Both the position numbers and the translations under genes were made by a program. Under the pieces are notes generated by a model. The model did no database searches, was not told the DNA's origin, and saw only the letters and a program-made list of their open reading frames with translations. DNA of 18,623 nucleotides from Candidatus Hydrogenedentota bacterium (lineage in GTDB: Bacteria; Hydrogenedentota; Hydrogenedentia; Hydrogenedentales; SLHB01), in contig BTWA01000063.1 in the NCBI GenBank assembly GCA_045863295.1, positions 1 to 18,623 of the forward strand. The letters are read 5' to 3'. Within the stretch, counting starts at the first letter, position 1. Every line of letters begins with the position of its first letter. Positions 46 through 18,623 of this stretch are shown piece by piece.

Positions 46-74
46 AGCAGTCTAGCCCAAACTATTCTGAGTGA

Positions 75-139
75 GCATTTTGCACCACGGAGACTGTACT
101 TCAGTCTTTCACGCACGCCTTAAGCGTGGTGCAAAATGC
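75..139. repeat. Perfect 15-bp inverted repeat with an internal hairpin (MITE-like or IS-end remnant)
   Basis: GCATTTTGCACCACG (75-89) pairs with CGTGGTGCAAAATGC (125-139). Inner hairpin AGACTG-TACTT-CAGTCT at 91-107. Confidence 0.7.
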
Positions 140-162
140 GGGCTACTGTTGCGCCCTGCCTG

Positions 163-5613: not shown

Positions 5614-5667
5614 CGAACGCTGCGGCGCCCAATCTGCCGTACATTGTACGAATTGAGGATAGGAAAC

Positions 5668-6945
5668 ATGTCCATCGCACACGAAGGCGAACCCAAGGCG
5701 AACGAATGGCGCAAGCGGTACGACGCGGTCATCGGATTGGGATTGAATACCTATACGCCCACTCAGGCCGTGGTGGATTCCGCGCAAGGGTATCGTCTGA
5801 AAACGGTCGATGGCAAGGAGCTTATTGATTTTGCCGCAGGCGTGTTGGTGGCCAATCTCGGCCACAACCATCCGCTGTTTGAAGAGCGCTACCGCCATTA
5901 TGCCGCGCGCCTGCCTCGAACGGCATACAACCTGATTGCGCCAATTGTGGCCGAAGCGTCCGAAAGGCTCGTGGCATCGATGAAAGCCAACCCAAAGGCG
6001 CAAAAAGTGCTCTGGGCCGCCAGCGGATCGGAAGGCATCCAAAAGGCCATGTGGTGCGCCATGCACAAGCATCCCAATCGGCCCATTCTCGCTGCAACGC
6101 GCGGCGGATTTCACGGCAAGAAAGGGTTGGCCGGCGACGTAACTGGTGAAACCAGCCAGAACCCCAATGTCCGGTTCGTTTCATTTCCGTTGGACGACGA
6201 CAAGCCCGAATCGTTCTACCGGGATGAACTGGAAGCCCTCTGGAAATCAGAGAATGGCAAGATTGCACTTCTGATCACGGAGCCCTATCTTGGCGCGAAA
6301 GGGTCGTTTCATCCACCGGTGTGGTATCACAAGCTGCTGCAATCGTGGTGCGAATCCCACGACATTGCGCTAATCTTTGATGAGGTGCAGGCCTGTCACG
6401 GCCGCACCGGGAACATGTACGCCTTTGAGTCCTACGAGATTCAGCCCGATCTGGTAGTGCTCGGCAAAGGACTCGCCAACGGCGAACCCGCGGCCGCTGT
6501 AGTGGGCCGAGCCGATCTTATCGATACACTGACTTACGGCGAAGCCTCCGATACATTCAGCGCCACACCCCGGGCGGCGGCGGCGGTATGCGCTACGTTT
6601 GACGTGTTTGACCGCGAGCAAATCGTGGAACATGCCAGAAGAATAGCCGTGCCGTTGCGCGAGGGATTGCATCGCCTGAAGGATCAGTTTCCGTTTGTAG
6701 CCGCCGTGCGCGGCGAAGGACTCGTCTATGGTATCGAAATGTCCGATGCCGAAACCGCCACCCGTTGCGTGTTGGAAGCCTACCGCGGTGACGGAACTAC
6801 CGGCGTCCACTTCTTGGGGCCGCTTGCACAGAAAGTGCTCCGAGTCAGCCCACCGTTGATCATTGACGAAGCGGGCCTCGATCAAGCATTCGGCATGCTC
6901 GAGACAGCGTGGGCGCGTGTCTCACTTCAGGCCGCCACATTCTAA
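5668..6945 (+). CDS. Class III PLP-dependent aminotransferase
   Basis: Motifs DFAAGVLVANLGH, SGSEG, FHG, LIFDEVQ..GRTG and PLP lysine in LGKGLANG. ATG 5668 follows GAGGATAGGA. Confidence 0.93.
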   Translation: MSIAHEGEPKANEWRKRYDAVIGLGLNTYTPTQAVVDSAQGYRLKTVDGKELIDFAAGVLVANLGHNHPLFEERYRHYAARLPRTAYNLIAPIVAEASERLVASMKANPKAQKVLWAASGSEGIQKAMWCAMHKHPNRPILAATRGGFHGKKGLAGDVTGETSQNPNVRFVSFPLDDDKPESFYRDELEALWKSENGKIALLITEPYLGAKGSFHPPVWYHKLLQSWCESHDIALIFDEVQACHGRTGNMYAFESYEIQPDLVVLGKGLANGEPAAAVVGRADLIDTLTYGEASDTFSATPRAAAAVCATFDVFDREQIVEHARRIAVPLREGLHRLKDQFPFVAAVRGEGLVYGIEMSDAETATRCVLEAYRGDGTTGVHFLGPLAQKVLRVSPPLIIDEAGLDQAFGMLETAWARVSLQAATF

Positions 6946-7079
6946 TTAGTGAGTGCTTTTCGCACCCGGTAGCGTGTGTTATACTGAGAGCTTCGGTCAC
7001 GTAGAATTTGTTTCGATTGGGCAAGGCGGCGACTCTCCAGTCGTGCAATCGGAACGTCCCCGACTGCGATGCCGCGTAA

Positions 7080-9470
7080 ATGGGCCTTTTTTGGGCAAAA
7101 CTGGGCATGGTCGATAAGGTGCAATGCCGCAGTGACGAAGCCGCACCGCGCGGAAACCCCGCGCAGGGCGGAACGCCCGACGCCGATGATAATAGTATCC
7201 GCAATAGTACTATTGCAGACCAACAACCCGATTCCCCCGGTGTACTATTTGAACGAAATCCAGCCCCCATGTGGATCTGCGACCCCGAAACACTTACCGC
7301 GCTCGCAGTAAATGCCGCCGCCCTGCAAAGGTACGCCTGCGGGCGGGATGCATTTCTGAAACTGACTCCGCAGGACTTCTTCCCAGCTGACGACCGGCGC
7401 TCCATTGCACAGTTTATCCGGCACCTCCGCGAGACGGTTGAAACGTCGGCCGTATATTCGATTAAGAATCTGTCGGACCAGACGATGGACGTTGAAATCT
7501 GCATGCAAACCGCGAATTTCAACGGGCGGCCCGCGCGTTGGGTTATGGTTATCGATTCATCTCTTCCGATCGGATCAAGCCGGGACTCCGATATAGCCGG
7601 ATCCAACCTCGCTTCGGCGCTTGAGACGGTACGCGAAGTAGTCTGGTCGTTCGATCTCGCGGGCGGTTTGAGCTACCTCAGCCCGGCCGCCGAATGGCTG
7701 TACGGACGCCCCTTGGATGCGCTTCGATCCGAACCGCAATTCTGGATTGATGCCGTGCATCCGGACGATCGGCCTTATGTGGATGCGGCCCTCGCCGAAC
7801 TCAATGAGAAAGGCGAGAAGGAGTTGGTTTACCGCATCATTCGGGGCGATGGTTCCATCGTGTGGGTTCACGACCGAGGCTGGACAATTCGCAACGATCG
7901 TGGAGAACCGATCCGTCACGCCGGCATCGTGCGCGACATCACTGAAAAACACCATACCGAAGTGCGCCTCTGGCTGCTTGCGGAAGCCATGGAGCAGGTC
8001 GCGGAATCGGTGGTCATCACGGATCGATCAGGTGTTATTCAATATGTCAACCCGGCCTTTACATCGAATTCCGGCTATGAGGCCAGCGAAGTGATCGGTC
8101 AGAATCCGCGAATCCTGAAAAGCGGCGAGCAATCGCCCGCTGTGTATGAATCCATGTGGCGGACGATTTCCTCAGGCGGGGTGTGGACCGGTCACCTTAT
8201 CAATAAGCGAAAAGACGGCTCTCTATACACCGAAGAAGTTTCCATATCGCCCATACGGAACGACCGCAGCGAGATTGACCATTACGTGGCCGTCAAACGA
8301 AATATTACGCACGAACTGGAACTCGAGGCGCAATTTCTACAAGCACAAAAGATGGAAGCGGTCGGAAGGCTCGCAGGCGGCGTCGCGCACGACTTCAACA
8401 ACCTGCTTGGCGTCATTGTCGGCTATTCCGATCTCATCGATGCCGAATTGCCCGACGAGAGCCCATTGAAGGAAGAGATTGGGTGCATACGCGACGCGGC
8501 CTATCGTTCGCGAGATATCACGCGTCAATTGCTCGCCTTCTCGCGCAAACAAATCATTCTTCCTGAGCCTTTAAATCTCAATGAACACATCGCCGTTACG
8601 CAAAAAACGCTCATGCGATTAATTGGCGAAGACATCGAATTGAAATTTAAACCGTATCCCGATCTCTGGACCGTTTACTTCGATGCGTCGCAACTGGATC
8701 AGGTGTTGCTCAATTTGGCTGTGAACGCGCGGGACGCCATGCCTCAGGGCGGAGCCATTACCGTGGTGACGTCCAATCAAACGTTGACTGAAGCAGACGC
8801 GGAATCGATTCCCCTTGCCGCCGCCGGCGATTACGTCAGTCTCGTATTCTCGGACAACGGCTCAGGCATAGACGCCGATGTTCTCGATCATATCTTCGAA
8901 CCCTTCTTCACCACGAAGGAAGCAGGAAAAGGAACCGGGTTGGGTTTGGCAACTGTCTACGGCATCGTTACCCAATGCAAAGGGTTCATTCTGGTGGAAA
9001 GTCAGCTAGGATCGGGAACCTCCTTTCAAATCTCTCTCCCTCGTCACACGAAAGGTTCCATCGCACACACCAAACACACAGAAGCTCCTCCCGCGACTGG
9101 GAGCGGCGTGGTCCTCATCGCGGATGACAATCCCTTGGTACGTAAGATGGCCAAGTCCATGCTTACGCGCCTTGGCTACACCGCCTACGACGGCGAATCG
9201 CCCGAAGAGTTGCTTCACTTCAGTTCCACCCACGAGGGCAAGATCGATTTGCTCTTGACCGACGTAGTTATGCCCGGAATGAGTGGCAAAGAGCTGGCGG
9301 ACCGGCTCCAGGCGCAAAGGCCTGATCTGCGTGTCATATTCATGAGCGGCTATACCTCGGACACCATTGCATTGCATGGCGTGCTCCAGGATGGCATCCA
9401 CCATCTGCAGAAACCCTTCACCCAGAAGGACTTGACCAAAAAGATTCACGAGTTGCTGGGCGTGGACTAA
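7080..9470 (+). CDS. Cytoplasmic PAS-domain hybrid sensor histidine kinase/receiver (CckA-like architecture); start uncertain
   Basis: Three PAS-like segments, H-box AHDFNNLL, NLAVNARDAM, DNGSG, FEPFFTTK..GTGLGL, and a receiver domain (LLLTDVVMP, MSGY, QKPF). Confidence 0.92.
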   Translation: MGLFWAKLGMVDKVQCRSDEAAPRGNPAQGGTPDADDNSIRNSTIADQQPDSPGVLFERNPAPMWICDPETLTALAVNAAALQRYACGRDAFLKLTPQDFFPADDRRSIAQFIRHLRETVETSAVYSIKNLSDQTMDVEICMQTANFNGRPARWVMVIDSSLPIGSSRDSDIAGSNLASALETVREVVWSFDLAGGLSYLSPAAEWLYGRPLDALRSEPQFWIDAVHPDDRPYVDAALAELNEKGEKELVYRIIRGDGSIVWVHDRGWTIRNDRGEPIRHAGIVRDITEKHHTEVRLWLLAEAMEQVAESVVITDRSGVIQYVNPAFTSNSGYEASEVIGQNPRILKSGEQSPAVYESMWRTISSGGVWTGHLINKRKDGSLYTEEVSISPIRNDRSEIDHYVAVKRNITHELELEAQFLQAQKMEAVGRLAGGVAHDFNNLLGVIVGYSDLIDAELPDESPLKEEIGCIRDAAYRSRDITRQLLAFSRKQIILPEPLNLNEHIAVTQKTLMRLIGEDIELKFKPYPDLWTVYFDASQLDQVLLNLAVNARDAMPQGGAITVVTSNQTLTEADAESIPLAAAGDYVSLVFSDNGSGIDADVLDHIFEPFFTTKEAGKGTGLGLATVYGIVTQCKGFILVESQLGSGTSFQISLPRHTKGSIAHTKHTEAPPATGSGVVLIADDNPLVRKMAKSMLTRLGYTAYDGESPEELLHFSSTHEGKIDLLLTDVVMPGMSGKELADRLQAQRPDLRVIFMSGYTSDTIALHGVLQDGIHHLQKPFTQKDLTKKIHELLGVD

Positions 9471-9602
9471 GCGCTCAATTCGCCATTGAAAACTTTCCGT
9501 TCCCAAAACCCGCCGAAGGTGTATACTTAATTGTGAAGTGCATCACGATTGCGCGGAGCACAATCGGGAGCGCGAGGTCTCCAACCGGGGGGAAATGAGA
9601 CC

Positions 9603-11129
9603 ATGTGCTGCGGGTGTCATACCATCAATCGCCGGACCTTTATGGAAATCACGGCGGGTGCTGTTGCGGCGGCTGGGGTGTCCGGTGCAAACGGCCAAGA
9701 GTACGAGGAAGCGGCTTGGTCCGTTGACGTGTGGGATCCCACCCGGCCTTACACCATGCAAAGCAAGACACTGCGCGTGCAGCCCATCCTCATGTACCGG
9801 TTGCCCCAGCGCAAAGAGATGGCCTCGTGGAAATCATGGGGCGGCATTCAAGACGAAGCAGCCGTCGCGGACGAAATCAACCGCATCACCCAGGAACTCT
9901 CGGCCGTCCAGGCCCGGGCAGAGTTCCCCCTCGAAATCCTGCCCGTCCTTCGGGTGACATCGCCGGAAGAAGGCGCCAACGCCTCAAAGACCGCCGACGC
10001 GGTCATCGTCTACCCGGCGACGGGATCCGGCGACTTGCTGCTTTCCTGTGTGCCGCCCCACGGGGCCATAGTGTTTGTGAGGCACGAATCCGGGCCAGTC
10101 TACTACTGGTACGAGGCGCTCAGCACCCGCTATCTGCAATCGGAGCGCATGCCCGCCGGCGAATCCCGACCCCTCCACGTCGACGACGTGGTTGTCGACG
10201 ACCCGGATGAATTGCTGTGGCGTTTGCGCGGCTTGTACGGCGCGCACAACCTGTTAAATGCACGCGTCGTCGCATTGGGCGGTCCGTGGGGAAAGTACGC
10301 CGCCGAAGCGCCGGAGTTTGCCAAGCAGCGGTTCAATTTCGATATTGTCGACGTGAGTTACGATGTGCTCGCCGCGCGGCTCGAAAAGGCCATGTTGAGT
10401 CCCGCCGCGATGAAAGTCGCTGAACACTGGACAGACGCATATCTAAGCCTTCCCAGTACGACCCTGAATACAGAACGCTCCTTCGTCACCAACAGTTTTC
10501 TGCTGTATGTGCTGTTCAAAGAGATGATCACCGAACACAATGCGGACGCGTTTACCATTCGCGGATGCATGGGCACAGTGCTTCCCATGTCCAAGACCAC
10601 GGCGTGCCTCGCACTGGAAATCATGAACGATGAAGGCCTCGTTGCGTTCTGCGAATCCGATTTCGTGGTGATTCCCGCAGGCATCCTGCTGCATCACGTA
10701 TCGCGCAAACCCGTGTTCATGCACAACTCGACGTTTCCGCATAACGCCACCGTCACCTGCGCCCACTGCACAGGCCCGCGCCGCATGAACGCCGAGCGGT
10801 TCGAACCCGCCGATATCCTCACGCACTACGAATCCGAATACGGTGCGGCGCCCAAGGTTTCCATGCCCGCGGGCCAGGAAGTTTGCTTCATAAATCCTGA
10901 GTATGCGACCGGCCGTTGGGTAGGCATGAAAGGCAATGTGAAAAGCAATCCATTTCTGCCCATCTGCCGATCGCAACAGGATGTCGAAATCGCGGGAGAC
11001 TGGCGCCGGCTACGCCACGAAGTGCGCGACTCCCACTGGATGATGGTCTATGGCGACTACCTCAAAGAGGCCGGCTACGCCGCAAAACGCCTCGGCCTTC
11101 AATGGCACAACATCTCTTACGCGGTGTGA
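9603..11129 (+). CDS. Tat-signal protein with L-fucose/L-arabinose isomerase-like C-terminal region
   Basis: INRRTFM twin-arginine motif and Ala-rich h-region. Motifs ACLALEIMNDEGLVAFCESD, CAHC and SHWMMVYGD are typical of FucI-like proteins. Confidence 0.7.
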   Translation: MCCGCHTINRRTFMEITAGAVAAAGVSGANGQEYEEAAWSVDVWDPTRPYTMQSKTLRVQPILMYRLPQRKEMASWKSWGGIQDEAAVADEINRITQELSAVQARAEFPLEILPVLRVTSPEEGANASKTADAVIVYPATGSGDLLLSCVPPHGAIVFVRHESGPVYYWYEALSTRYLQSERMPAGESRPLHVDDVVVDDPDELLWRLRGLYGAHNLLNARVVALGGPWGKYAAEAPEFAKQRFNFDIVDVSYDVLAARLEKAMLSPAAMKVAEHWTDAYLSLPSTTLNTERSFVTNSFLLYVLFKEMITEHNADAFTIRGCMGTVLPMSKTTACLALEIMNDEGLVAFCESDFVVIPAGILLHHVSRKPVFMHNSTFPHNATVTCAHCTGPRRMNAERFEPADILTHYESEYGAAPKVSMPAGQEVCFINPEYATGRWVGMKGNVKSNPFLPICRSQQDVEIAGDWRRLRHEVRDSHWMMVYGDYLKEAGYAAKRLGLQWHNISYAV

Positions 11130-11218
11130 AGAATGGAGAGCGTTGACCGCGCGGAATTGAATCACCCGCTTCAGGAGTTACGAATCGCCCCCGGCCCCCG
11201 CCGGAGGCGATTCGTAGT
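10636..11218 (+). repeat. 583-bp direct repeat, copy 1
   Basis: Matches 16211-16793 (offset 5575). One mismatch seen by eye, G10646 vs T16221. Confidence 0.97.
11179..11216. terminator. Strong hairpin between convergent genes (probable bidirectional terminator), copy 1
   Basis: TACGAATCGCC-C-CCGG ... CCGG-A-GGCGATTCGTA. U-tracts are weak. Confidence 0.6.
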
Positions 11219-11253
11219 ACTTATTGCCTTGTCAAACGGTATTTACAGTCCCT

Positions 11254-12582
11254 TTACTTCTTCAGCGAGTACTCTTGAATCTTCTTGCGCAATGTCACCC
11301 GCGAAATTCCGAGGATCTCGGCAGATTTCATGATGTTCCAGCCGGTGTGCGCCAATACAAGCCCCACATGTTCACGCTCCACATCACGCAATGTCTTGAG
11401 CTCGCCAATCCTTGGCACAACTACAGTCGAAGCTTTCATCGCATCCGATATGTCTTCAATAGTAATTGTATCGTGCTTACAAACGAGTATTGATCGCGTC
11501 AAGATATTGACCATCTCTCGAACATTGCCAGGCCAATCATAAGACTGAAGCGTTTGAAGGGCGCCTTCCTCAATATGCGATACCCTTCCTTTCAGTTCCC
11601 GGTTCAGGCGATCTAGGAGTGTCTTCGCTAGCAGCGGAATATCCCCCCGGCGTTCCCTCAGGGGAGGCACATGAATCGTCGTGACCGCCAGGCGGTAATA
11701 TAGATCCTCGCGAAACGATCCCATAGCGGCCATTGTCGTCAAGTCCTGGTGGGTCGCGGCAATGACACGCGCGCGAAACGGGAGTGCTACAGTGCCACCG
11801 ACAGGCTCAAACTCCCTCTCCTGTAACACCCGCAGCAGTTTGGCTTGGAGGTCGAGCGGCATATCCCCGATTTCATCCAGAAACACGGTACCCTCACCTG
11901 CCACAGTCAGTTTGCCGGTTTTTTTGGTATCCGCGCCTGTGAATGAACCTTTGACATATCCAAAAAGCTCGCTTTCCAGCAATGTCGGCACAACTGCCGA
12001 ACAATTGATGGCGACAAAAGGAAACTTCGGACGCGACGACTCATGAATAGTTCGTGCCACCAGTTCTTTGCCGGTTCCGCTGTCACCAGTGATGAGTACG
12101 GGGATGGGATTGGCACTCAACAACGCTATTCGCTTTAAGATGTCGATCATTTTAGGATCCGCGCCAACGATCTCGTTCGGCTCAGCACGATCCTCGGAAG
12201 CCGTTGGCACCCGCTTCGCGGGTGTGTGCTCCAATTGACGAGAAACCTTCTCAAGACAAAGCAGGACGGAATCCCAATCCAGGGGTTTTCGAATATAGTC
12301 GAATGCGCCGATGCGAATCGCATCTATGGTCGCTTTGGCATCCTGAACGCCAGTGATCATGATGGACACCAAGCCCGGCTGACGATCGCGTAGTTTTCGT
12401 AGAACCTCTAAACCGGACATGTCGGGCAGTCGCAAATCGACAAAGGCAACTTCCGGTTCAACACCCATTTCCAACGCACTTCGACCGGTGTGAAAACACT
12501 GAATTGAATGTCCTTCCATCTCCAACTGCAATTGAAATGTCCTGCATAGGGCGATGTCGTCGTCAATAATGACAATGTTCAT
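11254..12582 (-). CDS. Sigma54-dependent response regulator (NtrC/AtoC/ZraR family: REC-AAA+-Fis HTH)
   Basis: IIDDD and FVDLRLP receiver motifs; GDSGTGKE; ESELFG..KGSFTGA; FLDEIG; FREDLYYRL; WPGNVRE; SAEILGISRVTLRKK. Confidence 0.96.
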   Translation of the reverse strand: MNIVIIDDDIALCRTFQLQLEMEGHSIQCFHTGRSALEMGVEPEVAFVDLRLPDMSGLEVLRKLRDRQPGLVSIMITGVQDAKATIDAIRIGAFDYIRKPLDWDSVLLCLEKVSRQLEHTPAKRVPTASEDRAEPNEIVGADPKMIDILKRIALLSANPIPVLITGDSGTGKELVARTIHESSRPKFPFVAINCSAVVPTLLESELFGYVKGSFTGADTKKTGKLTVAGEGTVFLDEIGDMPLDLQAKLLRVLQEREFEPVGGTVALPFRARVIAATHQDLTTMAAMGSFREDLYYRLAVTTIHVPPLRERRGDIPLLAKTLLDRLNRELKGRVSHIEEGALQTLQSYDWPGNVREMVNILTRSILVCKHDTITIEDISDAMKASTVVVPRIGELKTLRDVEREHVGLVLAHTGWNIMKSAEILGISRVTLRKKIQEYSLKK

Positions 12583-14417
12583 GACAGGCTCCGGGATCCA
12601 GGCCGGTACGATTTCAACTTGACAGAGGCCGGCTTGTCTGCGTCACCTTGAGCAATTGGAAGCGTTACAGTCACTTCGAGCCCGCCCTCGCTTCGGTTGG
12701 AAATGATCAGCGATCCACCGTGCAATTCGGCTATCTTCTTCACATTGGCAAGTCCCAGTCCGGTGCCCTTTAATTTGTTGGTGTAGAAGGGTTCAGAGGC
12801 ACGAGCTAGCCCTTCTTCGGTGAGTCCCGGCCCATTGTCAACGAAGTGTATGGCTGCATAACCCTGAACCGCCGAGTGCCGTTCCGCGCAAACACGAATC
12901 CACCCTGCGCCGTCAATAGCATCTGCGGCATTCTCCAGTATGTTCGAAAAAACGCGCCGCACTTGCTCCCGATCAATCATGAGAACGAGGCGCTCGTCAG
13001 GAGCGATCACCCGCAGCGTAATGCCCTTCGACGCAAGTACAGGCTCCAAAACACGGCAGGTTTCAGCCGCCAGTTCGTCGAACAAAACCGGTTCCAAAGT
13101 CAGTGCTAAGGGCCGGCTATAGTGAAGCATATCGGTCAGCATATTTTCGAGACGGTCCACTTGCTGCAAAACGATTTGACCCATTTCCCGGTAACGAACG
13201 TCACTTCCCGCAGCGCGTGCCAGCACCTGAGTATTTATCTTGATCGACGAAAGCGGATTTCTCATTTCGTGCACGATGCTCGCGGTTAGTTCCCCAACCG
13301 AAGCCAATGCTTCCGTTCGAACGAGTTCCATCTGCTTTGCCTTCAACGTATCCATCATAAGATTGAACGCCTGGCGAAACGTCTCGCCTTCAACTGTGTC
13401 CTGTCGCCTGAGACGCTCTCCATAGTGACCGCTCTGAATGCGCGAAGCTACCCAGACAAGCTCGTTCAGCGGACGCCCTACAAACCGGGACACGGCCCAG
13501 ACCGCGGCAAATACAAACGCCAATGTAATTGCGACCGTGGTTATGATGCGAATCACAAGGATCTGAAGCCATTTCATGGCTTCACTCCGATCCACCTGAA
13601 TGCCCAATAACCAACCGGCGGGCGACATTGGAGCGACCGCAACCATGACTTGTCTTCCGTCTGAATTTGTGGTCTCAACCACCTTTGGCGGCGATGCCTG
13701 GAGGCTGAGCAACCACGCCGATTCGTTGTCGTCATTTATTGCCGGGTTCTGAACGGCGGCGGCAGTTGTGGACGACATCAGCATTCCCTTGTCCCGTGCG
13801 AAGAGCATTACTTGTGCCGTTGTGTACAGGGCGCTAGGACTCTGCATCGCGGGACCAATCTCCGATGCCACATCGACAATTCCAACAAGAGAGGCGCCAT
13901 TCGGACGGTGTTCGGCCGTTCCAACGGCTGTAACCAAACAAAGCCTATATTCGCCGGAGTCGCCCATTCTCGTAAGTATCCAGAGCGACTGGTGATCTTT
14001 CGACGGGTGTTCCATGGGTCGAATGCTCGTTGCGAGATCGGGCGTGCCGTCAGTTATTCCAAGTACAGTGCCTCCGGAATCTACGACAGCCATGCCTAGA
14101 AAGCGGCTGTGATTGTCAATGTACCTTTCTAAAACGGCCGCGATTTCCTCTGGCCCCGCCGAGGCGACATCAACCGACCCGGCAAGGAGTGTCCCCAAGT
14201 GATTGAGTTCTTGCTCCATCGAATTCAAACGCGCCTCAATTTGGTCTCGACTGGATCGCAGCATTACAAGAAGATGTTCCTGGGAGAGATCCATGATAGC
14301 TTCCGACGCGCAATGGTAACCTTGCGTGGCGATAATGAGTAGAGGCAGGATTGAAACCATCAAGACGGCCGCGAGAATGCGTCCGCGCATCGTCCATCGG
14401 GGCTTGTACGATTCCAT
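12579..14417 (-). CDS. Membrane sensor histidine kinase (TM, large extracytoplasmic domain, TM, HAMP, HisKA, HATPase)
   Basis: Two hydrophobic helices, HEMRNPL, NILENA, DNGPG and GTGLGL. ATGA overlap with the response regulator. Confidence 0.95.
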   Translation of the reverse strand: MESYKPRWTMRGRILAAVLMVSILPLLIIATQGYHCASEAIMDLSQEHLLVMLRSSRDQIEARLNSMEQELNHLGTLLAGSVDVASAGPEEIAAVLERYIDNHSRFLGMAVVDSGGTVLGITDGTPDLATSIRPMEHPSKDHQSLWILTRMGDSGEYRLCLVTAVGTAEHRPNGASLVGIVDVASEIGPAMQSPSALYTTAQVMLFARDKGMLMSSTTAAAVQNPAINDDNESAWLLSLQASPPKVVETTNSDGRQVMVAVAPMSPAGWLLGIQVDRSEAMKWLQILVIRIITTVAITLAFVFAAVWAVSRFVGRPLNELVWVASRIQSGHYGERLRRQDTVEGETFRQAFNLMMDTLKAKQMELVRTEALASVGELTASIVHEMRNPLSSIKINTQVLARAAGSDVRYREMGQIVLQQVDRLENMLTDMLHYSRPLALTLEPVLFDELAAETCRVLEPVLASKGITLRVIAPDERLVLMIDREQVRRVFSNILENAADAIDGAGWIRVCAERHSAVQGYAAIHFVDNGPGLTEEGLARASEPFYTNKLKGTGLGLANVKKIAELHGGSLIISNRSEGGLEVTVTLPIAQGDADKPASVKLKSYRPGSRSLS

Positions 14418-14469
14418 TACCTCTTTCCCTTACTTTCTTCCCTTGTAGAATGGTACTAATTGTGAATTA

Positions 14470-14511
14470 AAAAGTACCGGCCCAAGCCAACGCGCAGTTG
14501 TCAGGGGCCGG
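14470..14511 (-). terminator. Imperfect hairpin plus U-tract after small secreted gene A
   Basis: CCGGCCC (14477-14483) pairs with GGGCCGG (14505-14511), with inner CAAC/GTTG; followed on the minus strand by TACTTTTT. Confidence 0.45.
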
Positions 14512-14528
14512 CCTTTCCAATCCGATAT

Positions 14529-14909
14529 CTAGTAGCGGTGCACATGCTTGATATGGTCGATAGTTCGCAGCCTCTGAACCGGATCTACAAACTGGCCGGA
14601 TCCCGCCCTCGACGCCCCCTCACTTGGCTGGGTAACAACACGTTTCACGAATCGGCCGTGCCGCTCATATTTGCCCAAGTCACCCTTGTCATAAGTCACC
14701 CGAGTCTGGGCGGGATACAAGACCAAATTCTGGTTATGTGACGATCGGGCGGGATCAGCGATCCGCTTCACAAATCGTCCATGGCGTTCATAGGTCACTC
14801 CGTTGGAGATGCTGTACACCGGGCCGGCACTCGCAACGCTTGAGAACAGCATGGTGGTCATTATTCCGAGTGTCAATCCGGAAATAAATACACGGCTCAA
14901 CATAAACAT
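14529..14909 (-). CDS. Small secreted protein A (126 aa), unknown family, internal YERHGRFVKR repeat
   Basis: RBS GGGAG 7 nt before ATG; signal peptide ending VASA; clear paralogy with 15315-15683. Confidence 0.85.
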   Translation of the reverse strand: MFMLSRVFISGLTLGIMTTMLFSSVASAGPVYSISNGVTYERHGRFVKRIADPARSSHNQNLVLYPAQTRVTYDKGDLGKYERHGRFVKRVVTQPSEGASRAGSGQFVDPVQRLRTIDHIKHVHRY

Positions 14910-15036
14910 AACCAAACTCCCTTCCCACGTGCCTGGCACGCTGTTTCCCCACCCTCTAGGTGGGCTTTTTCTTCCCGGTTGAACGTTTCCGGCTTTGCGG
15001 GGCCATGTGCCCTGCTGGAAGCCGCGACTGGTTCAA

Positions 15037-15053
15037 CGCATAGGGTGTGCCAA
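15037..15053 (-). promoter_or_regulatory. Sigma54 -24/-12 promoter of gene A
   Basis: TTGGCACACCCTATGCG, i.e. GG-N10-GC. Confidence 0.8.
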
Positions 15054-15080
15054 ATTTTGAAAAACCGCCATGTCATTCTC

Positions 15081-15093
15081 TATCAACGGATTA
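15081..15093 (+). promoter_or_regulatory. IHF consensus site
   Basis: TATCAACGGATTA is a perfect match to WATCAANNNNTTR and lies between the enhancer and the sigma54 promoter. Confidence 0.6.
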
Positions 15094-15127
15094 CGGACAG
15101 TGCTCGCGTTGCAGTTGTCAACTGGAG

Positions 15128-15168
15128 TGGATAGTGTCTTTCCACCCCTGGTGGAAAGAAATGGATAT
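15128..15168. promoter_or_regulatory. Putative tandem enhancer (UAS) for gene A
   Basis: TGGATAG-TGT-CTTTCCA (15128-15144) and half-site TGGAAAG-AAA-TGGATAT (15152-15168), 24-bp period. Confidence 0.6.
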
Positions 15169-15247
15169 TCCCAATTGAGGACTCTCATCGCTCGTCCCGT
15201 TGAAATGGCCCGGCCCAATAGGCCCATGAGCCTCTGCAATATCGGCA

Positions 15248-15300
15248 AACAAAGTAAAGTGCCAGCCCCGGGGTCGCAGACAACCACCGGGGCTGGCACT
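15248..15300 (-). terminator. Rho-independent terminator after small secreted gene B
   Basis: 14-bp perfect stem AGTGCCAGCCCCGG (15258-15271) / CCGGGGCTGGCACT (15287-15300), followed by TTACTTTGTTT on the minus strand. Confidence 0.75.
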
Positions 15301-15314
15301 CAGACTGCCGAAAC

Positions 15315-15683
15315 CTACGATCGGCGCACGTGTTTGATGACGCCGACTTTGCGCACAGCCAATTCCGGCGCGTTGAAACCGCCGGATCCCGCACGGGCCT
15401 TGACCGGAATATCAACGGTGCGGTGTACGAACCGGCCGAGGCGTTCGTATTTTCCCAAGTCGCCTTTGTCGTACGTCACTTTCAACTGAGCAGGAGCGGA
15501 AGACGCGTTTGCGGACGGCGCGGAAATCTCAACAGTCCGCTTCATCAGTCTTCCAGACCGTTCGAAGGTCACGCCACTGTCTGTTGTGTACGTTGGGGCG
15601 GCGAGTGCGACACCGGCCGGCACCATCGACGCTACCAATCCCATTGCGAGAGCTCTTACCGACATGCGCTTGAACGTAAACAT
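15315..15683 (-). CDS. Small secreted protein B (122 aa), paralog of A
   Basis: RBS AAGGAG 7 nt before ATG 15683; signal peptide ending VALA; shares VTYDKGDLGKYERxGRFV and IKHVxR with A. Confidence 0.87.
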   Translation of the reverse strand: MFTFKRMSVRALAMGLVASMVPAGVALAAPTYTTDSGVTFERSGRLMKRTVEISAPSANASSAPAQLKVTYDKGDLGKYERLGRFVHRTVDIPVKARAGSGGFNAPELAVRKVGVIKHVRRS

Positions 15684-15813
15684 AGCCAATCTCCTTTTCC
15701 GTACTCCGCTTTGAAAGCTCGATAGTACGCATTTTGCTATCACCTTTCCGGTGGATTCGCTGCTTGTCATTTCAACTGGTTCGCCGCGCCTTGCGGCTAC
15801 CTGGATTGATATG

Positions 15814-15830
15814 AGCATGGGGCATGCCAA
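15814..15830 (-). promoter_or_regulatory. Sigma54 -24/-12 promoter of gene B
   Basis: TTGGCATGCCCCATGCT, i.e. GG-N10-GC. Confidence 0.8.
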
Positions 15831-15906
15831 TTTGAATAGATTGCCGTTAAGTGCCATGAGAGCAAGTGATTGGGGAGGGTCAGCAATCCGGAGATATAAG
15901 CTTAAC

Positions 15907-15947
15907 GGAAAAGAAACTGACCACCCAGCATGGTAGCATTCTTTCCA
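15907..15947. promoter_or_regulatory. Putative tandem enhancer (UAS) for gene B
   Basis: GGAAAAG-AAA-CTGACCA (15907-15923) and TGGTAGC-ATT-CTTTCCA (15931-15947), 24-bp period, at nearly the same distance from the promoter as for gene A. Confidence 0.6.
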
Positions 15948-16061
15948 TCTGCGGCGGCATCGGGTATGCAGCCGCTGGCAGTAGCACAATCTCGATCGAA
16001 CGGGATGACAACACCCAGGCGACTACGACACCCATAACGATGGAAATCTCAAGAAACCTGC

Positions 16062-16210
16062 TTAATTCGATGGCCACTCCTCATCTTCGATGTCCGCCCA
16101 GGGGTCGTCACATGTGGGTTTGCCATCTTCATCCAGGCGTGTGAGTCCGTGATAGGTACTAGCCTTGTTCACTATGTATAGCGGTATCTGCCCGGTAAAC
16201 GGGTCGCCCA
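16062..16210 (-). pseudogene. Possible 3' remnant of a gene cut at the repeat junction
   Basis: Open frame GDPFTGQIPLYIVNKASTYHGLTRLDEDGKPTCDDPWADIEDEEWPSN-stop runs from the repeat boundary and has no start of its own. Confidence 0.35.
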
Positions 16211-16704
16211 GCCTCGTTGCTTTCTGCGAATCCGATTTCGTGGTGATTCCCGCAGGCATCCTGCTGCATCACGTATCGCGCAAACCCGTGTTCATGCACA
16301 ACTCGACGTTTCCGCATAACGCCACCGTCACCTGCGCCCACTGCACAGGCCCGCGCCGCATGAACGCCGAGCGGTTCGAACCCGCCGATATCCTCACGCA
16401 CTACGAATCCGAATACGGTGCGGCGCCCAAGGTTTCCATGCCCGCGGGCCAGGAAGTTTGCTTCATAAATCCTGAGTATGCGACCGGCCGTTGGGTAGGC
16501 ATGAAAGGCAATGTGAAAAGCAATCCATTTCTGCCCATCTGCCGATCGCAACAGGATGTCGAAATCGCGGGAGACTGGCGCCGGCTACGCCACGAAGTGC
16601 GCGACTCCCACTGGATGATGGTCTATGGCGACTACCTCAAAGAGGCCGGCTACGCCGCAAAACGCCTCGGCCTTCAATGGCACAACATCTCTTACGCGGT
16701 GTGA
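16211..16704 (+). pseudogene. 5'-truncated duplicate of the isomerase-like gene (C-terminal ~163 codons)
   Basis: LVAFCESD...NISYAV is identical to the end of 9603-11129; the Tat signal and N-terminal two thirds are missing. Confidence 0.85.
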
Positions 16705-16793
16705 AGAATGGAGAGCGTTGACCGCGCGGAATTGAATCACCCGCTTCAGGAGTTACGAATCGCCCCCGGCCCCCGCCGGAGGCGATTCGTAGT
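16211..16793 (+). repeat. 583-bp direct repeat, copy 2
   Basis: Matches 10636-11218 and includes the hairpin copy at 16754-16791. Confidence 0.97.
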
Positions 16794-16868
16794 CTTAACT
16801 GCAGTAGTCGAATTACTGAAACAAGGGATAAAGAGAGCGGAAACGACAATGAACCGGCAGACCCGGGC

Positions 16869-17444
16869 TCAGAAATTCCACATCACTTGGCCGCCGGAGT
16901 CGTCTTTGGCGGCAGGGTCAGAGACATGGGCGTCCTCGGGGATGTCGTCAGAAAATGAGGGTTCATCGGCAGCATCCGAGTACGGGGATTCGTCCGCCTC
17001 GATGGCAGTAGACGAGTTGATGGGACTCGTGGAAATGTCAACTTCCGCCGCAGTTTCCCAAGGAGCCGCATGGCCATTATCGCCCTCGCGCCCTTCGGCC
17101 GCAACGGATTCGTCGACGTCGGGTTCATCGCCTGTCTGCGGTGGGGCGGGTTCGGCAGGCACGGCGGTTACCACGGCATAATTGGATTCCGGCTCCGGTT
17201 GTCGAACTTCCCGTTTCGAGCGGGACTCCGAAACCCGGTCCAGGTAAAACACGTAGTCTACCGGCTCCCGAAGGATGCGGGAGATCTTAAGGCAGATCAG
17301 AATGGACGGGTTCAGCTTGCCCTTTTCAATCGCGATGATGGTCTGTCGGGTAACGTCGACTTCGCGCGCCAGGTCTGCCTGACGCAAACCCAAGCGTGAT
17401 CGCAAGTCCCTCACACGATTTCGTAGACTCAACCCCTCACTCAT
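16869..17444 (-). CDS. Xre/Cro-family helix-turn-helix regulator with long acidic C-terminal tail (start 17444 or 17462)
   Basis: LRNRVRDLRSRLGLRQADLAREVDVTRQTIIAIEKGKLNPS..VDYVF, followed by an E/D/P/S/A-rich tail. Confidence 0.9.
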   Translation of the reverse strand: MSEGLSLRNRVRDLRSRLGLRQADLAREVDVTRQTIIAIEKGKLNPSILICLKISRILREPVDYVFYLDRVSESRSKREVRQPEPESNYAVVTAVPAEPAPPQTGDEPDVDESVAAEGREGDNGHAAPWETAAEVDISTSPINSSTAIEADESPYSDAADEPSFSDDIPEDAHVSDPAAKDDSGGQVMWNF

Positions 17445-18623
17445 AACGCGGGATAATACCATGCGACCTATCCGGCATCAACCGTTCTGAAACAGTGCCG
17501 AGATTCCTCGTTGCGAATATCGAAGCACCGAAATTTCCTGTATGCTCCACAGGCAAGCGCGACTTAATCTGAGACACGAATCCGTCGAAGCAAAACGTGA
17601 CGAACTCGAAGCGGTGTTTCACGCTGTTCCCTAATACAATTGGACGATCACCATTTGGACTCGCGCTGCAGAGCGCGTTTCCGATGCGGGAGCACTCGCA
17701 AATTACGTGGCGTCCCGTCAGGTAGATTCCAAGCTCCACGCATTGGTACAGCCGGATCGCCCGAATCCAATTTTTCGGGAAATTCAGGCGTAGGCAAGCC
17801 ATCGAGTTGTTCACGATCCATTCTGCAACAGGTGTTTGCACGGGATGCCGACTCTCCCAGTTTTTCAAATCATTCTACCCACTTGTATCGCCGACTCATC
17901 GTCCAGGTGCGTTTTATTCATTTCTAAAATTGCGGCATATTCGGCATATATTACTCGTGCACGTTGGAGAAGTTGTTAGGTGATTGTATGTTGGGATAAG
18001 GCCAAACCCGCTACAGCTTCAATATGAAGCAATGAAGAAGTGGCAGTCATCGACGATTGATTATGAAGCATACCATATGTTGAATAGTGCCTGCTGGGGT
18101 CTACAGAATCGTGGATAGGACAAGTCGCCCGGGTAAGGTCGGCAGAGCTCGCCAGTGCCCCGGCTCAGCTCCTTCAATATGAGTGAAACAAGTATGGAAC
18201 ATAGTTTTTGGCTACTTGCCGTGCGTTTCACCAAGCAAACTATGGGTTTCACAAGCCTGACTGGCCATGGTGAAATGAAATGATTAGATACGAAATGCAA
18301 TGCAGAATTCCGGTGTTCACTTCGTGATGAGGTGTTCGGTTCCCTGTTTAAAGCGGGGTATCAGGCCCCTCAAAAAGGCTTGCGTGTCTGCTTAGGTGTA
18401 GGGTACCGTATGCCGGTTTGGGGGTGTGTTGTAGTGGCTAAGCGTGCTCAGGCACGGTTCTTTTGGGGTTACCAATCAATCCGATGGCAAGTCGTTATTG
18501 TGGAATCGATTTTGGCACATCCAACAGTTGTGCCGCTTTGGCGGATGGCGATCAAGTCCGTGTTTTGGAGCTTGACCCTTCCAATGATACGCCGACCTGT
18601 CTACCGTCACTCCTGTATGTATC

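Follow-up and report, generated by a model that had tools for sequence, protein, structure and literature searches.

Organization of the locus

We analyzed a stretch of 18,623 bp from the genome of a Candidatus Hydrogenedentota bacterium. This stretch, the window, is an entire contig (C63) of a metagenome-derived genome that consists of 88 contigs (6.34 Mb) and is 96% complete. Within it, the 3' end of an intact gene (G) and the short tail that follows are present twice, in direct orientation. The two copies of this repeat (R1 and R2; R for either) bracket a 4,992-bp cassette (X) that contains a sigma-54 two-component module and two small genes. Beyond R2 is a gene for a helix-turn-helix (HTH) regulator. 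The original prediction, made from the letters of the window, had described this order as gene-R-X-R-next gene. We confirmed the arrangement: the segment at 10636-11218 recurs 5,575 bp further on, at 16211-16793, with 582 of 583 positions unchanged (Table 1).

R is composed of the final 494 nt of G and an 89-nt tail that holds a hairpin, in agreement with the earlier description of R as the last ~494 nt of an isomerase-like gene plus its hairpin, with a single mismatch near the edge. That mismatch (G10646 in R1, T16221 in R2) is located 10 nt from the left edge and is synonymous, changing one alanine codon for another (GCG/GCT). Outside both ends of R, identity fell to background at once. When the 300-nt flanks of the copies were aligned locally, and likewise the 5' part of G with the right end of X, the scores were no higher than for shuffled sequence. 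Because these neighboring alignments were no better than shuffles, we consider the boundaries of R to be sharp. An older and larger duplication around R that had since decayed was ruled out, as there was no wider homology at the level of DNA or protein. The left edge is featureless and falls within a codon, which fits the expectation for the end of an arbitrary fragment. The right edge is 2 nt past the hairpin. The only microhomology found at the junctions was a shifted CTTA after the right ends, which we took to be chance.

When the genome was compared with itself, the R pair was the only direct repeat within a contig of at least 500 bp and at least 99% identity. A search of the 6.3-Mb genome with R detected only a 66%-identical paralogue elsewhere, on contig C22. 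The hairpin in R1 has a predicted folding energy of -32.9 kcal/mol (z -5.2), and none of 200 shuffled sequences folded as well. Both hairpin copies are located between convergent genes, as had been proposed: the first lies between G and the regulator gene of the cassette, which ends at 11254, and the second between R2 and the HTH gene, which ends at 16869.

Based on these findings and those described below, we estimate a probability of roughly 0.6 that the structure is a true scar of insertion into the chromosome, of the type called insertion with long target duplication, and that it was made by host recombination.

Table 1. Features of the window. Positions are those of the 18,623-bp stretch.
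Feature	Position	Strand	Basis or remark
Class-III aminotransferase, left anchor of the variable gap	5644..6945	+	Pfam PF00202, E 2.3e-73
PAS/PAS hybrid histidine kinase with receiver	7080..9470	+	Pfam PAS, HisKA, HATPase_c, Response_reg
Gene G, intact 508-aa protein with twin-arginine signal	9603..11129	+	RRTFM motif in translation
R1, repeat copy 1 (end of G plus 89-nt tail)	10636..11218	+	582/583 match to 16211-16793
GC-rich hairpin between convergent G and regulator genes	11179..11216		Inverted-repeat search, fold; no T-tract after
X, 4,992-bp cassette: sigma-54 two-component module and two likely target genes	11219..16210	-	Domain searches
NtrC-type sigma-54-dependent response regulator (REC, AAA+, HTH_8)	11254..12582	-	Pfam Sigma54_activat, E 5.3e-63
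Sensor histidine kinase, periplasmic Cache-like domain	12579..14417	-	Pfam HisKA, HATPase_c; stop overlaps regulator start
sp1, 126-aa secreted protein, two DKGDLGKYERHGRFVKR-like motifs	14529..14909	-	Translation, alignment
Sigma-54 -24/-12-like box, TGGCAC-N6-TGC	15038..15052	-	Pattern search; 129 nt upstream of sp1 start
sp2, 122-aa sp1 paralogue (46% identity), two DKGDLGKYERHGRFVKR-like motifs	15315..15683	-	Translation, alignment
Sigma-54 -24/-12-like box, TGGCAT-N6-TGCT	15814..15829	-	Pattern search; 131 nt upstream of sp2 start
R2, orphan 5'-truncated copy of G end with tail and hairpin	16211..16793	+	No G homology upstream of 16211 (DNA, protein)
Second hairpin copy, facing convergent HTH gene	16754..16791		Inverted-repeat search
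HTH_3 (XRE-type) regulator, right anchor of the variable gap	16869..17462	-	Pfam PF01381

Gene G is full length

The host gene had been described as intact, and comparison with its relatives bore this out. We found 1,778 homologues of G at E≤0.001 among 8,000 proteins scored, the best of them 65% identical. Homologues are 500-513 aa long with coverage of 98-100%, and G, at 508 aa, is full length. The databases label this family "sugar isomerase / L-fucose isomerase-like". Searches of G against Pfam and NCBIfam gave no match, and a search against PDB sequences gave nothing usable (one match, at E 0.51). Among the 40 relatives that we searched at the DNA level (41 genomes in all, none of the same genus), the best identity to G was 66-68%.

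The cassette encodes a predicted signaling circuit

The regulator and kinase genes of X overlap and share their strand with sp1 and sp2. Matches of the regulator to ntrC/AtoC-like families of NCBIfam fell under the equivalog cut-offs, and the match of the kinase to dCache_1 in Pfam was likewise under its cut-off. The closest relative of the kinase among 5.8 billion proteins was 35% identical, and most of the matches were from Hydrogenedentes records. Within the family the kinase is patchy: matches at E≤1e-40 came from 16 of the 54 genomes, the best of them 39% identical.

The proteins encoded by sp1 and sp2 share a conserved C-terminal histidine. They belong to a rare, unnamed family, with 13 members at E≤0.001 among 65 candidates, including the two from the window. 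No Pfam domain was detected in any of the 13 proteins, and the DKGDLGKYERHGRFVKR-like motif was found nowhere else in this genome. Upstream of each gene is a TGGCAY-N6-TGC box, which we take to be a match to the sigma-54 -24/-12 consensus. All of the features of an NtrB/NtrC-like sigma-54 module were found: the kinase and regulator domains, an rpoN gene (on contig C34), and the -24/-12 boxes. Judging from domain content and the position of the motifs, X probably constitutes a complete sigma-54 signaling circuit, with sp1 and sp2 as its probable targets.

The cassette has no detectable mobility genes

There was no gene for an integrase, a transposase or a replication protein among the long open reading frames (ORFs) of X, as assessed with Pfam and NCBIfam. 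None of the matches of 20 stop-to-stop ORFs to Pfam (E≤1) came near a cut-off. Ten ORFs were compared with PHROGs, and the sole matches were of transcription-regulator families to the HTH gene, which is outside X. In these comparisons, no hidden mobility gene turned up in the small ORFs of X or in the 527-bp interval that separates sp2 from R2. The earlier statement that X lacks an integrase or transposase thus held in all three databases. These databases also revealed no recombinase anywhere on the 18.6-kb contig. There were no tRNA genes or Rfam families in the window, and among the inverted-repeat pairs listed, none was terminal to X. As we read it, the structure is an insertion scar and not a self-mobile element.

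Integrative elements typically enter the 3' ends of genes and regenerate the gene end. This habit, together with the position of the right end of R just past the hairpin, would suit a site-specific element whose recombinase was lost or acts in trans, similar to a cis-mobilizable element (CIME), with the hairpin as the attachment site. We regard such an origin as very unlikely. At 583 bp, and with its left end in mid-codon, the duplication greatly exceeds known att cores in length. An integrase was found in neither the cassette nor the contig, the hairpin sequence occurs at no other site in the genome, and there were no terminal inverted repeats among the pairs listed. R is also far longer than the target duplications made by transposases or integrases, as the original prediction had pointed out. 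We rejected an integrase-dependent element or a decayed remnant of one, because of the length of the repeat and the lack of a recombinase on the contig. A composite transposon or other unit bounded by insertion sequences was also rejected, because what flanks X is the 3' end of a housekeeping-type gene, and no terminal inverted repeats were among the pairs listed.

The GC content of X is 0.535 and that of the genome 0.566, placing X at the 6th percentile of 1,224 genomic segments of 4,992 bp. The claim that X is less GC-rich was therefore upheld weakly; the tetranucleotide distance of X, at the 73rd percentile, did not make it an outlier. Because of this ordinary tetranucleotide distance, composition did not support a foreign origin, and we rejected such an origin on these grounds despite the low GC percentile. 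X has the look of accessory DNA belonging to this lineage rather than of a recent import from a distant one.

Read depth supports the junctions of both repeat copies

The read-level data were Logan contigs (k=31), in which R collapses to one unitig and the two sides of R are unlinked per molecule. One sequencing run (X1) is the probable source of the genome, with 99% of sampled words present. In this run, unitigs corresponding to 8378-10676 (11.8x), 11189-12608 (13.1x), 12593-16251 (11.7x) and 16764-18582 (12.1x) were recovered, along with an R unitig of 572 nt at 18.8x. The flanking unitigs each reach ~30 nt into R, and the four junctions were present at ~12x. Because each flanking unitig enters R, all four junctions exist in the reads at single-copy depth. 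The depth of X was equal to that of the chromosomal flanks (11.6-13.1x for the unitigs of the region). A repeat at single-copy depth with unsupported junctions, the misassembly that the original prediction had considered, was not what we found: R was at 18.8x and its neighbors at 11.7-13.1x, and none of the junctions was missing.

The k-mer contigs of run X1 break within X at the junction between the kinase and the regulator (12593-12608), with an overlap of 16 nt. We read this break as a local dropout in coverage. The overlap of the stop codon of the kinase gene with the start codon of the regulator gene argues that the DNA is continuous there.

These data also bear on whether the duplication could be a chimera, in which the assembler merged two strains or two loci. 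The genome is derived from a metagenome, and related strains co-occur in sludge samples. However, the unitigs of the region were at one depth (11.6-13.1x) in run X1, with R higher, whereas a merge of two strains predicts unequal sides or X at summed depth, and X connects to nothing but R. We give hardly any credence to a chimera.

Several observations weigh against an insertion scar. The depth of R was ~1.5-1.6x in run X1, short of 2x. The collapsed k=31 contigs link neither the 5' part of G through R to X, nor X through R to the HTH gene, on one molecule. The genome assembly looks like the product of SPAdes at k=55, with eight contig-end overlaps of exactly 55 nt and 770 N. Such an assembly may have walked the R-X loop once. 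The path of the contig through this loop is therefore not independent proof of integration. No empty site was seen; the 41 genomes searched included none of the same genus, and an exact 30-mer from the tail of R was found in no records of metagenome contigs. The reading also gives no account of where a circular R+X donor would have come from. X is compositionally ordinary, and nothing marks it as incoming DNA.

Some of these observations would also be expected if the chromosome were simply G-R-HTH, accompanied by a separate 5,575-bp circle of R and X or by a mixture of integrated and excised forms, and the assembler had threaded the loop once. The graph is a simple loop in which both ends of X connect only to R (an empty site plus an R+X circle would produce an identical one), the exact 572-bp repeat far exceeds a k of 55, and R falls short of double depth. 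Nonetheless, we consider this ambiguity quite unlikely to account for the structure. X was at 11.7-13.1x and the flanks at 11.6-12.1x, depths that a free circle could match only if each chromosome were accompanied by exactly one copy. Searches of Pfam, NCBIfam and PHROGs revealed no replication or partition gene in X. R at 2x would be expected for a circle plus an empty site as well, and the shortfall in R depth thus provides no support for it. With no replication gene and with X at the depth of the flanks in run X1, a free plasmid or an excised circle of this size is disfavored.

The gap is filled differently in related genomes

In the window, the genes flanking this region on the outside are a class-III aminotransferase and the HTH regulator, whose stop codons are separated by 9,923 bp (gap 6946-16868). 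In three relatives (G005, G015 and G021), the same two genes are direct convergent neighbors, with stops 21, 33 and 139 bp apart, respectively. One of these genomes (G005) also keeps two ribonucleotide reductase genes in the order of the window. The N-terminal 70 aa of the HTH regulator were 57-81% identical at the loci of 13 relatives. The more distant relatives in which the aminotransferase and HTH genes abut also lack G. Because the two anchors abut in relatives, the PAS kinase, G, X and R2 represent lineage-specific filling of the gap.

In a fourth relative (G008), a single PAS kinase gene is between the aminotransferase and HTH genes. This kinase (on G008:C373) corresponds to the C-terminal half of the PAS kinase of the window, at 48% identity. 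The convergent gap between the aminotransferase and the HTH gene is a hotspot where accessory signaling genes have accumulated.

The six best orthologues of G in relatives are at other loci. Within ~9 kb of these six, there was no sigma-54 regulator or Cache kinase comparable to those of X; at one of the loci, there was only a weak match (30%) to a receiver domain.

Possible routes of insertion and their consequences

If the structure is an insertion scar, the simplest route would be a single RecA crossover of the Campbell type between a circle of R and X and the end of chromosomal G. Alternatively, a two-step template switch during replication or repair, at the hairpin, could have generated it. 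By either route R would be duplicated and G left whole. The expected product is an intact G, then X directly after the hairpin, and then the final 494 nt of G and the tail once more, as a dead copy that has no promoter.

Campbell-type integration of a circle that carries a 3' gene fragment is used for insertion-duplication in the laboratory. It is reversible by RecA, and the length of the repeat is that of the homology carried. The topology there is the same as in the window (an intact gene, the insert, and a promoterless 5'-truncated copy), although X has no vector or replicon functions. RecA, RpoN, ComEC and DprA were found in the genome, which is 96% complete; a search for Ku found none. 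Because RecA, ComEC and DprA are present and Ku was not found, homologous or replication-based routes are favored over classical end joining. Ku-dependent end joining is disfavored as a route for the same reason.

The 583-bp copies would be substrates of RecA for deletion (releasing a 5,575-bp circle), amplification and gene conversion. It is plausible that excision, amplification, and on/off or dosage variation would occur, as is the standard expectation for direct repeats of 583 bp in a cell with RecA. No recombination intermediate was observed, and neither an empty site, a circle junction nor an excess depth of X turned up in the k=31 contigs, in which the collapsed R would hide them. We are doubtful of a further possibility, that R-X-R is an active module that has no recombinase of its own and relies on RecA. 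Such a module would loop out as the 5,575-bp circle, amplify, and re-enter any genome bearing G by a single crossover, with on/off or dosage variation of the sigma-54 circuit at the level of the population, and its repeats would evolve in concert across strains.

Strain variation and the age of the duplication

Matches to the window were also found in runs of other studies (X2 and X3), at depths of 2-5x; in X2-X4 the depth over the cassette was low and uneven. Runs X2 and X3 match the window nearly everywhere they cover it. They share four differences from it within 191 bp of R (at 10916, 10937, 11099 and 11106), three of which are at third codon positions. Away from contig ends, X3 differs from the window at no other site except position 109. 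A contig of X3 with the variant R (10910-11248) extends 30 nt into the cassette, and a contig of X2 with the same variant ends exactly at 11218. Because the X3 contig enters the cassette, the G-to-X junction exists on another allele of R. The clustering of the differences suggests a recombination or gene-conversion tract that is limited to the repeat.

The original prediction had called the capture recent. This is now uncertain, since the G-to-X junction is also found, in a run from another study, on an R that differs at four sites. The near-identity of the two copies could be due to gene conversion rather than youth. The structure could thus be the same but old: the duplication would predate the divergence of the strains, the copies would have been homogenized by gene conversion (concerted evolution), and the mismatch at 10646/16221 would mark the limit of a conversion tract. 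The clustered differences shared by two runs that otherwise nearly match the window, the junction on a variant R, and the position of the lone mismatch so close to the edge of the repeat are all in accord with an old duplication. On the other hand, the depths are low (2-5x) and contigs drop rare variants. Changes at third codon positions suit the import of a functional allele, not transfer from a pseudogene copy in decay. The data fit just as well with a mixture of strains or with an unrelated recombination tract in the lineage of X2 and X3, and neither run shows both copies of R. Overall, it seems unlikely that the duplication is old in this sense. The differences in X2 and X3 can be read as an older duplication that was homogenized in the strain of the window, as an imported short tract, or as mixtures of strains.

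Comparison with known systems

Orphan gene ends are also found in other settings. In Escherichia coli, insertion of e14 or phage 21 into icd leaves an orphan gene tail, the icdC pseudo-3' end. As in the window, there is a functional gene end and a second copy of the gene end stranded beyond the insert. However, the icd elements carry an integrase and a diverged replacement end, whereas here the copies are identical except for the one mismatch and no recombinase was found. The effector loci of Rhs, contact-dependent inhibition (CDI) and type VI secretion systems (T6SS) contain C-terminal displacement arrays, in which recombination at the 3' region leaves orphan 3' fragments downstream. Those orphans are different toxin tips accompanied by immunity genes. 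In contrast, the stranded fragment here repeats the sequence of the end of G, which is not a polymorphic toxin.

The insertion scar that we favor belongs to a class of structures that has already been described, and the mechanism is not new (PMC2853133). Insertion with long target duplication is attributed there to Nobusato et al. 2000 (Gene 259:99). As given by Furuta, Abe and Kobayashi 2010, the criteria are an insert of <20 kb, a duplication of >30 bp, and no linked mobile genes (PMC2853133). The repeat often spans a stop codon and the gene survives. In the cases presented in that article, the inserts carry restriction-modification genes, the repeats range from 46 to ~423 bp (417/423 in one example), and an empty site is present in a sister genome. 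A cycle of invasion, amplification via the repeats, and release is proposed there, with experimental support described for amplification only (PMC2853133).

The structure in the window resembles these cases in several ways. X, at 4,992 bp, is shorter than 20 kb, the 583-bp direct repeat is of target sequence that is otherwise unique, X has no linked mobility genes, and R spans the stop codon of G and leaves the gene intact. It differs from the cases presented in that article in cargo, in repeat length and in that no empty-site genome was available among the 41 searched, none of which was of the same genus. The cargo here is a sigma-54 module and not restriction-modification genes, a difference that describes the sample of published cases and not the mechanism. 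The repeat is 583 bp long and identical at 582 positions, compared with 46 to ~423 bp in those cases.

If X is integrated as assembled, the window would contain a clean case of gene gain by long target duplication, with an unusually long (583 bp) and well-preserved (one mismatch) repeat. It would come from a little-studied uncultured phylum and have regulatory instead of defense cargo. Scars of this kind would show that recombination by the host is by itself enough to add whole operons between convergent core genes, and probably to remove or amplify them.

Other repeats in the genome

We observed further short direct repeats in this genome, at C6:38615-38760/45491-45636, C24:78599-78678/86101-86181 and C1:44057-44228/49851-50022. 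These pairs are 81-172 bp long and 88-99% identical, and they bracket 5.6-7.4 kb. The left copy at C6 overlaps the stop codon of a 729-aa ORF, and no long ORF contains the right one. The C6 pair may be another duplication of a gene tail.

There is a palindromic dispersed repeat of ~95 nt at the left end of the window (51-145, also 1-55). A BLAST search of the genome with this repeat gave 92 rows, and many of the copies were 87-97% identical. The k-mer depth at position 109 reached 1,774 in run X1, over 27 contigs. The repeat looks like an element of the repetitive extragenic palindromic (REP) or miniature inverted-repeat transposable element (MITE) type, which would explain why the contig breaks at this position. 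The first 55 nt of the window also form the end of contig C3, a link in the k=55 graph.

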